A DNA stretch of 40,569 nt from a virus. This document shows, piece after piece, positions 1,827 through 8,020 of this stretch (the stretch's first letter is position 1; the number at the start of each line of letters is the position of its first letter). Below the pieces are notes generated by a model. That model was not told the origin of the DNA. It did not search any database and saw only the letters and a list, made by a program, of their open reading frames with translations. The stretch is taken from IMG/VR virus record IMGVR_UViG_3300026962_000013, positions 1 through 40,569 of that record. One strand, 5' to 3'. A program made the position numbers and the translations under genes.

Positions 1827-2060
1827 ATGCCTACATCAATCACGGTGTCCCGGGACCCGTCGGAGTACCGACCGACGATCCATGCCGGGCAACGCGCGAA
1901 AGAGCGTGGCATCAACTGGGATCGGGTGGCGGACGCGATCGACGGTGGCGAGGTGCGGCAGACGCATCGGCGTGGGTGTCGGTTGTTCGTCGACGACGGG
2001 GTCGGTGTGGTCGTCGACGTGGCCGACCGAGAGATATTGACGGTGGGTTGGTACGAGTAG
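1827..2060 (+). CDS. DUF4258-like protein (RelE/BECR-fold nuclease-like)
   Basis: 77 aa from ATG 1827; HAxxRxxERGI...V...I..G...VVVD...ILTV pattern typical of DUF4258. Confidence 0.7.
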   Translation: MPTSITVSRDPSEYRPTIHAGQRAKERGINWDRVADAIDGGEVRQTHRRGCRLFVDDGVGVVVDVADREILTVGWYE

Positions 2061-2149
2061 GTCCCGATGACGGCCGCTGGGGTGCTCCCATGCTCGAGGG
2101 TGTTGCACCGGTCGCGGATGCTGGCAGCTCGTCCGCGAGGATACGTGGT

Positions 2150-2343
2150 CACGGGGATCGGTTCGAGTCCTGTCACTGTGAGTTGCCGACTGCGGCAGCG
2201 AATACGTGCCCTCGCCTCGACGCTGGGTGCCCCCTGGATAACAGGGGATCGCGGGGTCGGGGATTCCCGGGGGTCAGGTGAGAGTCCTGGCTGCCGCACA
2301 TTCGCCTCGTTGGCGGTGCGTGGTTCGACTCCACGCCGAGGTA
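2150..2343 (+). ncRNA. Three small T-loop-capped tRNA-like units (2150-2181, 2251-2298, 2304-2343) plus hairpins
   Basis: T-loops TTCGAGT (2162-2168), TGAGAGT (2279-2285), TTCGACT (2324-2330), each closing a stem that stacks on a short acceptor-like stem. Confidence 0.5.
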
Positions 2344-2355
2344 TCGGCGGATAAG

Positions 2356-2441
2356 GCCGTGAATGGGTGTTGACCCTGCGGAGGCGGTAAACCCGTCTAA
2401 GGCGTTCACGCGTCTGAGTGGGTGAGAACCCTGTCACGGCA
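2356..2441 (+). ncRNA. Non-canonical class-II-like cloverleaf RNA (86 nt)
   Basis: 7-bp GCCGTGA/TCACGGC acceptor + discriminator A, three internal hairpins, T-arm with TGAGAAC loop. Confidence 0.55.
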
Positions 2442-2450
2442 CCGTCGCAC

Positions 2451-2634
2451 GGGCCGATAGCTCAATGGTAGAGTCGGAGAGTAGCGCCACCCGACGTAGA
2501 TTACCCCCGATGTTCACCCCGGAAGGCGCGTCCGGTGTTGGGCGGCATCGGTGAGGTAGAGCGGCACCCGTCCCTGGGTGTGGCGCTCCACGCGATTCGG
2601 AAGCAACGTGCAGGTTCAACTCCTGCTCGGCCCA
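2451..2634 (+). ncRNA. tRNA-like RNA with ~105 nt structured insert in the anticodon arm (184 nt)
   Basis: GGGCCGA/TCGGCCC-A acceptor, TAGCTCAATGGTAGAG D-arm, GCAGG-TTCAACT-CCTGC T-arm; no canonical anticodon loop. Confidence 0.75.
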
Positions 2635-2724
2635 CTCGCCCGCCTGCCGCGGCAGGTGGGAAGTCGCGGGCTGAAAGACGCCAAAGGGAGCGACATCCGA
2701 GCGTTCCCCTACAGCGCGGCGTTC

Positions 2725-2943
2725 GGACCGATAGCTCAGTCTGGGAGAGCACCGGGCTTAGTTCCGTGGTAGTAATCGACCGGGTGACTGAACGCCGCGA
2801 GGCAAATAGGGTGGTCCGGTCGTGAACAAGACGCGGGAAGCGCCATAAGTAGGGAGATACGGCGGGACGCCGCCGTGCCGGTGACGGCTATCCCGAAGGC
2901 GTGGATTGCCTGGCTGTCCCGAGTTCAAATCTCGGTCGGTCCA
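2725..2943 (+). ncRNA. tRNA-like RNA with 152 nt structured insert replacing the anticodon loop (219 nt)
   Basis: GGACCGA/TCGGTCC-A acceptor, GCTC-AGTCTGGGA-GAGC D-arm, CCGGG/CCTGG anticodon stem, CTGTC variable loop, CCGAG-TTCAAAT-CTCGG T-arm. Confidence 0.8.
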
Positions 2944-2945
2944 CT

Positions 2946-3013
2946 GGCCCACGGGTACCCCCGTTGAACCAACCCCACCGGGGTTGGGACCAGCCCCCGA
3001 GGCTGGGTGGGCC
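2946..3013 (+). ncRNA. Four-way-junction RNA without tRNA consensus
   Basis: GGCCCAC/GTGGGCC closing stem enclosing three hairpins (including CCAACCCC/GGGGTTGG and CCAGCC/GGCTGG). Confidence 0.45.
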
Positions 3014-3069
3014 TCCAACCCCGACGCGGCCTCTCCTCCCCCGAGGACGTGACTTCCCCGCGTCACCAA

Positions 3070-3098
3070 CCCGCGTCGACCTCACCCGTCGACGCGGG
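3070..3098. repeat. Perfect 11-bp inverted repeat
   Basis: CCCGCGTCGAC-CTCACCC-GTCGACGCGGG just upstream of ATG 3114. Confidence 0.85.
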
Positions 3099-3113
3099 CC
3101 TCAACACACATTC

Positions 3114-6401: not shown

Positions 6402-8020
6402 GCACTACTGCCAACGTCGACCCGTCCGACGTCGACACCATCCGGGACGTCATGGCCCGGTACGCCAAGTCGACGGGCCCCGACCGGTACGCCCGCTTCA
6501 TCCAGGACCTCCTCGGTCTCCAGCGCACCTACGTCCAGGATCGCATCCTCGCGGCGCTACACGAGCACGAGCAAGTGGTCGTCGCCGGCGCGAACGGCGT
6601 CGGAAAGTCCTACATCGCCGCGGCAGGCGGGATCGCTGCGCTCCACTGCAACCCGGACACGATCGTCAACGTCACCGCCGGGACATCGGGAACGCTGAAG
6701 ACGAACATCTGGAAACCAGCACGATCGCTCTACCGTGGGAGCCCGCTGCCGACGATGTTCGGCGGGCGGACGATGGACGGCGATCGAGAGATCCAGACCG
6801 GCCTTGACGACGAGTGGTTCTTCGAGTGCGTCAGCCCCCGGTACCCCGACGACCTCCAGGGCCCACACAACGACCACGTCATCTACATCATCGAGGAGGC
6901 CGACAAGCCCGGTGTCACTGCAGACCACACCGAGGCCGTCCGGTCGACCGCCACCGACGAGAACGACCGCATCCTCGTCATCGCGAACCCGCCGGATGGG
7001 AGCGGCAACATCGTCCACGAACTGATCGAGAACGACGAGTGGCACCACCTCCAATTCCCCACCTGGGCTGCTCAACCCGTCCGCATCGACCGCGGCCTCG
7101 AGCCGGGAGCGCCGATCGGCGGGCTGGCGACAACGCACAAACTCGAGAAGGACTGGCAGGAGTACCACGACGAGGAATGGCCAGGTCTCGATCAGGCTAT
7201 TCGTTGGTCGGATCCGTGGCTCGGCGCCGAACCCGAGGAGCGCAGCGCCGTCCTCCCAGAGGACCTCGGAGACGTCCCGAACGACGAGTTTCGGGAAGAC
7301 CTCTCCTCGCTCTGGTACCGGCGTCGCTGCGGAATCGTCCCACCGGGCGGCGCGTCGGTTCTCCGCCCGATCGAGCCCAGTGATGTCCGGGCGGCCTACG
7401 ATCGCCAGCCTGCCGCCGTACGCGAGACGCCGCAGTCGGTCGGGATCGACGTCGCCAGGACTACAGACAACACCGTCATGCTCGGCGTCCACGATCTCGA
7501 GCTTCGCGTCCACTACGCCGAGCAAGGCGACAACCACGAGCAACAGAAGCCCGATGTCGTCGACGGAACGGCGTCGACGCCCGGCCTTGCTGAGTGGCCG
7601 GCGCCGGACATCGCCGTCGACAAGGGCTACGCCCCCGGCTTCCACGACTACGTCAACGACCGGTTCCCCAACGTCGTCGGGTTCCAGAACGGAACGAAGC
7701 CGATCGCCGAGACGCGCTGGTACGACAAATGGTCGGAGGCACTCCACCACTTCGGCGAGTTCCTCGAGGAAGGCGGCTCGATCGCCAGCCAGCAGCTCCG
7801 GAAGGAGGCGCTGGCAGCCGCCCGCGTCGTCCAGTACAAGGAGCGGACGCTGGACTCCCGGGGCAAGAACGGCGCCGAGGTCTATCAGGCGACCTCGAAG
7901 GAGGCGATCAAAGAGGAGCTCGGCCACTCGCCGGACTACCTGGACGCGGCCCTGATGGCCGTGTGGGTGGCCCGGACTGACGACCGCGACCAGAAGGCCA
8001 GCCCGACGTTCGGCTGGTAA
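6398..8020 (+). CDS. terL: Terminase large subunit
   Basis: Walker A GANGVGKS, Walker B IYIIEEAD, LVIANP coupling motif, nuclease GIDVAR and SPDYLDA; start at ATG 6398. Confidence 0.95.
   Translation: MSTTANVDPSDVDTIRDVMARYAKSTGPDRYARFIQDLLGLQRTYVQDRILAALHEHEQVVVAGANGVGKSYIAAAGGIAALHCNPDTIVNVTAGTSGTLKTNIWKPARSLYRGSPLPTMFGGRTMDGDREIQTGLDDEWFFECVSPRYPDDLQGPHNDHVIYIIEEADKPGVTADHTEAVRSTATDENDRILVIANPPDGSGNIVHELIENDEWHHLQFPTWAAQPVRIDRGLEPGAPIGGLATTHKLEKDWQEYHDEEWPGLDQAIRWSDPWLGAEPEERSAVLPEDLGDVPNDEFREDLSSLWYRRRCGIVPPGGASVLRPIEPSDVRAAYDRQPAAVRETPQSVGIDVARTTDNTVMLGVHDLELRVHYAEQGDNHEQQKPDVVDGTASTPGLAEWPAPDIAVDKGYAPGFHDYVNDRFPNVVGFQNGTKPIAETRWYDKWSEALHHFGEFLEEGGSIASQQLRKEALAAARVVQYKERTLDSRGKNGAEVYQATSKEAIKEELGHSPDYLDAALMAVWVARTDDRDQKASPTFGW

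Follow-up and report, generated by a model that had tools for sequence, protein, structure and literature searches.

A tRNA-Phe counterpart in a haloarchaeal provirus carries a 152-nt segment, predicted to fold as two domains, in place of its anticodon

What does a tRNA gene encode when its anticodon loop position is occupied by 152 nt of other sequence? The question is raised by unit F, positions 2725-2943 (+ strand) of an IMG/VR provirus record of 40,569 bp, the whole of which was analyzed and is called the window here. Unit F consists of a complete tRNA body with a 152-nt segment (2757-2908) in the position of the anticodon loop.

The provirus encodes the small and large terminase subunits, the portal, and the head proteins of a tailed virus, and its structural genes look intact. 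Metagenome contigs carry identical copies of the first 11.8 kb of the window, adjoining haloarchaeal host genes, and a 180-aa protein (1279-1821) has homologues only in the Halorubrum viruses BJ1, Humcor1, and CGphi46 and in Halorubrum tailed viruses. The sequencing runs listed for this DNA are two DNA metagenome runs. The nearest relative borne on a genome is a provirus of Halovenus marina, with a terminase that is 79% identical. Searches with the 180-aa and a 419-aa protein gave no close relatives in IMG/VR, and a large protein collection returned only the protein itself. Upstream of the window start, L004 (6758-8722) indicates that the provirus seemingly begins 1-2 kb ahead of the IMG/VR record, where host genes (DUF7115 and an intein-rich ribonucleotide reductase) give way to small virus-type ORFs at 7626; default ARAGORN finds no tRNA gene at this border.

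Replication genes lie on one side of the unit F locus and terminase genes on the other. Unit F is close to the 3' end of a gene-free stretch that is bounded by a 77-aa and a 110-aa ORF and was delimited by gene calls on the identical metagenome contigs:

2060-3113, + strand, 1,055 nt: gene-free stretch with unit F and a second unit, E

The ORFs overlapping this stretch match no Pfam or PHROG family, and coding on either strand was dropped on these grounds. Neither a TATA-like box nor a T5 run occurs within it, that is, no promoter or terminator signal was seen, and transcription along with the flanking genes is the simplest assumption for both units. There are no other tRNA genes in the window according to default ARAGORN. 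Between unit F and the next gene (2944-3113), four hairpins with C-rich loops follow each other in series; they include the most stable windows of this 1-kb block (z about -3.9) and might represent a terminator, a processing site, or a packaging site.

The tRNA body of unit F is composed of the following elements.

2725-2756, + strand: 5' half, with the acceptor strand (2725-2731), U8, A9, the D arm (2734-2750), A26, and the 5' strand of the anticodon stem (2752-2756)
2725-2731 with 2936-2942, + strand: acceptor stem, GGACCGA with TCGGTCC, followed by A73 at 2943
2734-2750, + strand: D arm, GCTC-AGTCTGGGA-GAGC
2752-2756 with 2909-2913, + strand: anticodon stem, CCGGG with CCTGG, 5 bp including one G-U pair
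2909-2943, + strand: 3' half, with the 3' strand of the anticodon stem, the variable loop, the T arm, the acceptor strand, and the discriminator A at 2943
2914-2918, + strand: variable loop, CTGTC
2919-2935, + strand: T arm, CCGAG-TTCAAAT-CTCGG

The original prediction described this body as a near-perfect tRNA frame with four canonical arms, which is borne out: all 21 pairs of the 7-bp acceptor and of the D, anticodon, and T stems are intact (21/21), and the tertiary nucleotides U8, A14, G15, G18, G19, A21, C48, G53, T54, T55, C56, A58, and C61 are in place. Unit F thus has the cloverleaf and the conserved tertiary nucleotides of a decoding tRNA; CCA is not encoded at its 3' end. When introns are allowed, ARAGORN detects the frame of unit F together with a second one, unit E, while its default mode reports 0 genes and Rfam gives no tRNA for unit F at the gathering score or at E up to 10. 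In 100 shuffles, the expected count of the frame pattern is 0.00. The ARAGORN intron solution (Ala-GGC, with a 126-nt intron) was dropped, as it requires an absurd variable arm and its intron placement is forced.

The relatives of the provirus point to the origin of this body. An intact tRNA-Phe(GAA) gene is found at the position of unit F in BJ1, Humcor1, the viral contig L011, and two BJ1-like proviruses of haloarchaeal genomes, the syntenic position being after the 180-aa homologue and before the homologues of the 110-aa and 419-aa proteins. In BJ1 and Humcor1 the 180-aa homologue and one small ORF precede the tRNA-Phe gene, and in L011 the tRNA-Phe gene lies upstream of a homologue of the 110-aa protein, the gene of which likewise follows unit F. 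The genes of BJ1, Humcor1, and L011 are 72-74 nt long and have the loop CTGAAGN; the first two are located as follows.

AM419438, 19973-20046: tRNA-Phe(GAA) of BJ1
MW344765, 43438-43509: tRNA-Phe(GAA) of Humcor1

Over 27 nt, the 5' half of unit F shares 96% of its positions with the BJ1 tRNA-Phe, and it is 88-96% identical to tRNA-Phe and tRNA-Lys genes of haloarchaeal genomes, and its CTGTC variable loop is that of the L011 tRNA-Phe, in support of the earlier suggestion that the D arm and the variable loop resemble haloarchaeal tRNA-Phe. For the T arm and acceptor, the match is to haloarchaeal tRNA-Gly(GCC) genes, with 93% identity over 28 nt. Relative to the BJ1 tRNA-Phe, five pairs (4:69, 31:39, 50:64, 51:63, and 52:62) have changed on both sides with pairing kept. 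Judged by sequence and position, unit F is the counterpart or descendant of the tRNA-Phe gene found at this place in related tailed viruses of haloarchaea. The closest relatives of the provirus are without unit F, and the locus, which differs in every relative, turns over fast.

The two junctions between the body and the 152-nt segment show what has become of the anticodon loop.

2757-2761, + strand: 5' junction, CUUAG; C32 and U33 are kept and GAA is absent, compared with CTGAAGN of BJ1, Humcor1, and L011
2903-2908, + strand: 3' junction, GGAUUG, the last G of which can pair with C32 to give an anticodon stem of 6 bp

Because the ancestral CTGAAGN loop survives only as C32 and U33 on its 5' side and a single base on its 3' side, the anticodon has been replaced rather than split, nucleotides 34-37 being those replaced. 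Removal of the insert in silico can rebuild a 7-nt loop in 8 ways, for each of which default ARAGORN calls a 75-nt tRNA. Rejoining yields Ile (GAU or UAU) or Leu (UAG) anticodons and in no case a Phe anticodon, and the nucleotide at position 37 is U in all rejoinings, just as originally claimed. The loop of a decoding tRNA of this type, with 7 nt, U33, GAA, and a purine at 37, is therefore not found in unit F, and removal of the insert does not yield a functional anticodon arm.

The exon junctions were also searched for the bulge-helix-bulge (BHB) geometry, consisting of a helix, a 4-bp helix, and a 3-nt bulge on each strand. No canonical 3-4-3 motif fits there, which agrees with the original prediction on this point as well. 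Even in the best candidates the central helix is mismatched and rich in G-U pairs, and the bulges measure 3 and 2 nt or 4 and 3 nt; one near miss has the central helix TTAG/TGGA with one mismatch, bulges of 3 and 2 nt, and an inner helix of 3 bp. DNA as GC-rich as this yields many such hits by chance, the 1-kb block alone giving 209 under a lenient rule. One candidate that would link unit E (2577-2596) over a long range to the 3' end of the unit F insert (2899-2915) was rejected, as G-U pairs make up three of the four in its central helix and better local helices compete. All archaeal splicing endonucleases recognize the canonical motif of a four-base-pair helix and two three-nucleotide bulges, other bulge lengths being accepted only by the heterodimeric (alpha-beta)2 enzyme, mainly of TACK archaea, and the enzyme of Haloferax volcanii is an alpha2 homodimer (PMC7714728). 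Since GAA is gone, no canonical BHB is present, and every rejoining gives an Ile or Leu anticodon with U37, unit F is almost certainly not a decoding tRNA.

The insert itself is predicted to fold into two domains (Us in the motifs refer to the RNA).

2762-2838, + strand: domain 1, basal stem 2762-2768 with 2832-2838
2771-2774 and 2824-2826, + strand: domain 1 internal loop, AGUA and GAA
2777-2785 with 2814-2822, + strand: domain 1 helix of 9 bp, including CGACCGG/CCGGTCG (2777-2783 with 2816-2822)
2794-2803, + strand: domain 1 distal hairpin, GCC-GCGA-GGC
2840-2902, + strand: domain 2, basal stem GCGCC/GGCGU (2840-2844 with 2898-2902)
2845-2851 and 2895-2897, + strand: domain 2 internal loop, AUAAGUA opposite GAA
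within 2840-2902, + strand: domain 2 three-way junction, reached via a GGGA/UCCC helix
2859-2876, + strand: domain 2 hairpin, ACGGCGG-GACG-CCGCCGU (2859-2865 with 2870-2876)
2877-2888, + strand: domain 2 hairpin, GCCG-GUGA-CGGC

In the model, both domains would sit on a three-way junction at the tip of the anticodon stem, extendable to 6 bp. The minimum-energy structure of the insert coincides with the centroid and accounts for 13% of the ensemble, and the fold is stronger on the + strand than on the - strand (-63.8 vs -48.2 kcal/mol). Enforcing the cloverleaf leaves both domains unchanged at a cost of 3.2 kcal/mol (-96.4 kcal/mol, compared with -99.6 kcal/mol for the free fold). The four helices and GNRA hairpins on which the original prediction was built all occur at the places given for them and belong to the minimum-energy fold, and the positions of AGTA (2771 and 2848) and GAA (2824 and 2895) are likewise confirmed. 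The description of the insert as an "ornate" domain is weakened by the stability of the fold, which is within the genome background: the folding z-score is -2.5, and, because 18 of 158 genome windows of the same size, coding regions included, reach z < -2, thermodynamic stability does not single out the insert. Its GC content is 0.62, compared with 0.64 for the genome.

The AGTA-helix-GAA arrangement is rare in the genome, with 4 strict and 12 relaxed cases in 81 kb (both strands), and two cases fall within the 152-nt insert against 0.022 expected in what is a post hoc test. The 2848/2895 case is strict, and the 2771/2824 case needs two extra nucleotides on the 5' side and one on the 3' side; the 5' strand in domain 2 has three extra nucleotides. 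At the level of sequence, the arrangement may thus be called loop-E-like or bulged-G-like, and neither case copies the sarcin-ricin loop. A C/D-box guide RNA within the insert was considered and dropped, as there is no C box. For the insert (2750-2915), Rfam gives no family at E up to 10, and in the block the weak sR22, mascRNA, and Twister-P5 hits are at chance level; the models of group I introns and self-cleaving ribozymes also have no match to 2750-2915 at this threshold. To our knowledge, all known group I introns are longer than 152 nt.

Homologues of the insert were sought widely. None was found in GenBank phages by blastn with the whole block and with the insert alone, in IMG/VR by four pattern scans (the single match of one of these is AT-rich chance DNA), in the JGI metagenomes by two pattern scans, or among all collected loci by nhmmer; BLAST of the block against 401 Halobacteria genomes matched only the tRNA halves, to host tRNA genes. 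Because the only copies known are the identical ones on metagenome contigs, the insert is an orphan and nothing shows selection on it. A broad scan of IMG/VR for a D arm separated by 150-180 nt from a T arm listed more than 120 matches; eight of those listed have a paired acceptor, and these are not haloarchaeal, as judged by their GC content of 0.40-0.55. Three non-halophile viral contigs with a GC content of 0.45-0.47 (L087 6323-6544, L155 8335-8531, and L161 6849-7045) have D and T arms at this spacing with the paired acceptor GGGCAAA/TCTGCCC, and these frames may be interrupted phage tRNA genes.

Unit F has a neighbor of similar design. Unit E, at about 2451-2635 and 90 nt upstream of unit F, is a second complete frame of acceptor, D, and T arms, with the acceptor GGGCCGA/TCGGCCC, A73, about 105 nt in the anticodon region, and a 20-nt stretch ahead of the T arm. 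Its D arm, TAGCTCAATGGTAGAG, is that of the tRNA-like RNA of the virus HFTV1, and its fold is not significant (z -0.85).

The relatives with terminases 86% (L015) and 79% (L019) identical have a different, shorter noncoding stretch at this locus. At the same place, L015 (4401-4607, 207 nt) and L019 (6133-6235, 103 nt) contain a 7-bp acceptor and a T arm (TTCAAAT or TTCGACT) that enclose 100-170 nt without a D arm or an anticodon arm. The noncoding stretch of the three related proviruses opens with CCCGATGAC, followed 10-25 nt on by CGAGGGT(C/G)T(G)CA, a region for which Rfam gives only a chance-level C/D-box match (sR22, E 3.7).

Window 2061-2110: CCCGATGAC motif site
L015 4311-4365: CCCGATGAC motif site
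L019 6063-6105: CCCGATGAC motif site

About 7 kb upstream of the Halovenus marina provirus terminase, ARAGORN with introns allowed also finds a tRNA-Met(CAU) with a 59-nt intron (L019 654-787), which may be a host gene near the provirus border. The BJ1-type viruses and proviruses, in turn, have a conserved, unannotated tRNA-shaped RNA of about 105 nt, some 170-240 nt downstream of their tRNA-Phe, which is composed of a 6-bp acceptor, a D-like hairpin, a three-helix long arm with a 9-nt loop, and a T arm.

L007 5016-5116: long-armed tRNA-shaped RNA (BJ1)
L002 5064-5164: long-armed tRNA-shaped RNA (Humcor1)
L011 4028-4125: long-armed tRNA-shaped RNA
L028 1200-1296, - strand: long-armed tRNA-shaped RNA
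L037 1769-1865: long-armed tRNA-shaped RNA

Compensatory changes are seen for 14 of its 32 predicted pairs (RNAalifold), the whole 350-nt noncoding stretch being 76-78% identical between these records. A covariance model of this RNA finds no member in the window or in the closer relatives (best E 0.56).

We propose, with a probability of roughly one half, that unit F encodes a non-decoding tRNA-shaped RNA that would be released and stabilized by RNase P and tRNase Z by way of its tRNA body, leaving two loop-E-like domains exposed. Of what this reading requires, descent from tRNA-Phe, a complete body, the lost anticodon, the missing splice motif, and the predicted fold are established above, and transcription, processing, stability, and any partner are inferred. 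The reading is favored by the intact body, the motif enrichment, the strand-asymmetric fold, unit E, the tRNA-like frames and the covarying long-armed RNA of the relatives, the t-elements of haloarchaea and the HFTV1 RNA described below, and structural genes that look intact, and it is weakened by the orphan insert, the relatives without the unit, the background z-score, and the lack of a promoter or terminator signal.

The most serious competing explanation, which we consider less likely, is that unit F is a dead gene, in which the viral tRNA-Phe recently lost its anticodon loop to an inserted or replacing segment; any RNA made would then have no role, and its stems would be intact for want of time to decay. 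This is the decayed tRNA interrupted by unrelated DNA that the original prediction itself set against its proposal. The intact body could indeed reflect nothing other than a recent change. In favor of a dead gene are an orphan insert that is absent from relatives, has a GC content matching that of the genome, and folds with unexceptional stability, a neighbor (unit E) without a significant fold, and a locus that differs across all relatives. On the other hand, the event would have had to strike two adjacent units precisely in the anticodon region, with zero broken pairs and zero lost tertiary nucleotides in unit F, and to place two of the rare AGUA-helix-GAA arrangements inside 152 nt. Moreover, a gene-free stretch of 1 kb is retained in an intact, tightly packed provirus, and related viruses have selected tRNA-shaped RNAs with expanded arms at this locus.

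The two further explanations fare worse. If the 152 nt were an intron, the host endonuclease would have to remove it on a relaxed motif, or it would be spliced otherwise, to give a Leu (UAG) or Ile (GAU/UAU) tRNA. Haloarchaeal tRNA genes with long anticodon-loop introns do exist (PMC7714728), a near-miss BHB is present at the junctions, and ARAGORN accepts the rejoined products as tRNAs. However, the canonical BHB does not fit, motifs of equal quality are common by chance (the 209 hits per 1 kb have strict geometry under a lenient rule), and all products combine a tRNA-Phe body lacking the Phe anticodon with U37 instead of a purine. The insert also has no C box, hence no C/D guide RNA like that of the tRNA-Trp intron, and Rfam, with its models of group I introns and self-cleaving ribozymes, assigns it to no family at E up to 10. 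Because of the missing canonical BHB, the U37 on a Phe-type body, and the lack of a C box or Rfam match, we regard splicing into a working tRNA as very unlikely. That the tRNA halves and hairpins act at the DNA level, as an attachment, packaging, or replication site and not as RNA, seems very unlikely to us, even though the locus lies between replication and terminase genes, temperate haloviruses use a tRNA-like attP (PMC7230728), and the strongly folding hairpin series at 2944-3113 is adjacent. An att scar would not give halves that lie 152 nt apart in the same orientation and form a full cloverleaf, the fold is strongly strand-asymmetric through G-U pairs, and the insert is not repeated elsewhere in the window.

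Under the non-decoding RNA reading, the history and fate of unit F would be as follows. In a viral tRNA-Phe gene, nucleotides 34-37 of the anticodon loop would have been swapped for about 150 nt that fold as two hairpin domains. The RNA would be made together with the neighboring genes and excised by the host RNase P and tRNase Z, an excision that we propose because the complete L-shaped tRNA body is kept, and CCA would probably be added. The product would be a stable species of about 219-222 nt, unable to decode, in which the tRNA body serves as a handle for processing and stability and the loop-E-like domains, on the extended anticodon stem, would be free for a partner. A bolder version, which is speculative and to which we give little weight, holds that the virus re-used the tRNA-Phe body so that the host machinery excises it, adds CCA, and stabilizes two loop-E-type modules that engage the ribosome, a translation factor, or a host defense protein; unit F, unit E, and the further tRNA-like modules in the 1-kb block would then jointly be an archaeal-virus counterpart of the large structured RNAs in the tRNA islands of bacterial phages. 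The ribosome- or factor-binding mimic put forward in the original prediction is likewise speculative.

With units E and F, the covarying long-armed RNA of the BJ1 type, and the HFTV1 RNA, haloarchaeal tailed viruses repeatedly carry non-decoding tRNA-shaped genes. If expressed and processed, unit F would be a natural case of a virus tRNA gene turned into a scaffold for another RNA domain and, because the intact ancestor gene survives in relatives, a clean model for the origin of such RNAs. Should it be just a dead gene, what is left is a small matter of annotation, namely that this provirus lost the tRNA-Phe of its lineage.

Several known RNAs invite comparison with unit F. Described t-elements are small, reduced host structures. 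The t-elements of haloarchaea are cut by RNase P and tRNase Z, as with the one that precedes the 5S rRNA of Haloferax volcanii (Hoelzle 2008 and 2012, as cited in PMC4326828). They share with unit F a non-decoding tRNA shape whose likely use is recognition by tRNA end-processing enzymes, and unit F shows their defining feature, a tRNA-like acceptor/T-arm fold without decoding capacity; it differs from them in being viral, in keeping four arms, and in carrying a large two-domain insert.

The combination of a tRNA-like module with a large non-tRNA domain is likewise found in tmRNA and YrlA. The former lacks the D and anticodon stems, both of which unit F keeps, and archaea, as far as we know, lack SmpB. 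GOLLD and ROOL are large structured phage and prophage RNAs near tRNA genes, sometimes with a tRNA in the linker (10.1101/2024.12.08.627333). All four of these RNAs are bacterial, whereas unit F comes from an archaeal virus; in unit F, Rfam gives no match to tmRNA, GOLLD, ROOL, or YrlA at E up to 10 and ARAGORN finds no tmRNA. Viral tRNA genes interrupted by segments of unknown class are also present in the Lak megaphages, where they are described as "enigmatic" introns (PMC6784885). They differ from unit F in that the phages infect bacteria and have AT-rich genomes, the tRNA type and anticodon can be assigned, and conserved forms of the inserts recur across cohorts, the insert of unit F being an orphan. 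Intron-containing archaeal pre-tRNAs, of which Haloferax volcanii has three genes including tRNA-Trp (PMC7714728), likewise hold a long segment inside the anticodon loop, but unit F has neither their BHB, nor a usable loop after removal, nor a C box.

The RNA of HFTV1 (MG550112, about 6434-6552) is also the product of an oversized tRNA-shaped gene of a haloarchaeal tailed virus. Two species of this RNA are expressed, and it sediments together with 30S subunits and polysomes (bioRxiv 10.64898/2026.09.13.751334). Compared with unit F, it is part of a head-gene operon, its extra segment is shorter and precedes a recognizable anticodon arm, its predicted anticodon is that of Thr, and it has no sequence similarity to the unit F insert. 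The tRNA-Phe(GAA) genes of the Graaviviridae share with unit F the position, the acceptor type GGAYCGA/TCGRTCC with A73, a near-identical D arm and 5' half, and a 5-nt variable loop alike in kind. What sets unit F apart from them is that three pairs of its T stem have changed on both sides and that about 150 nt replace the anticodon and position 37.
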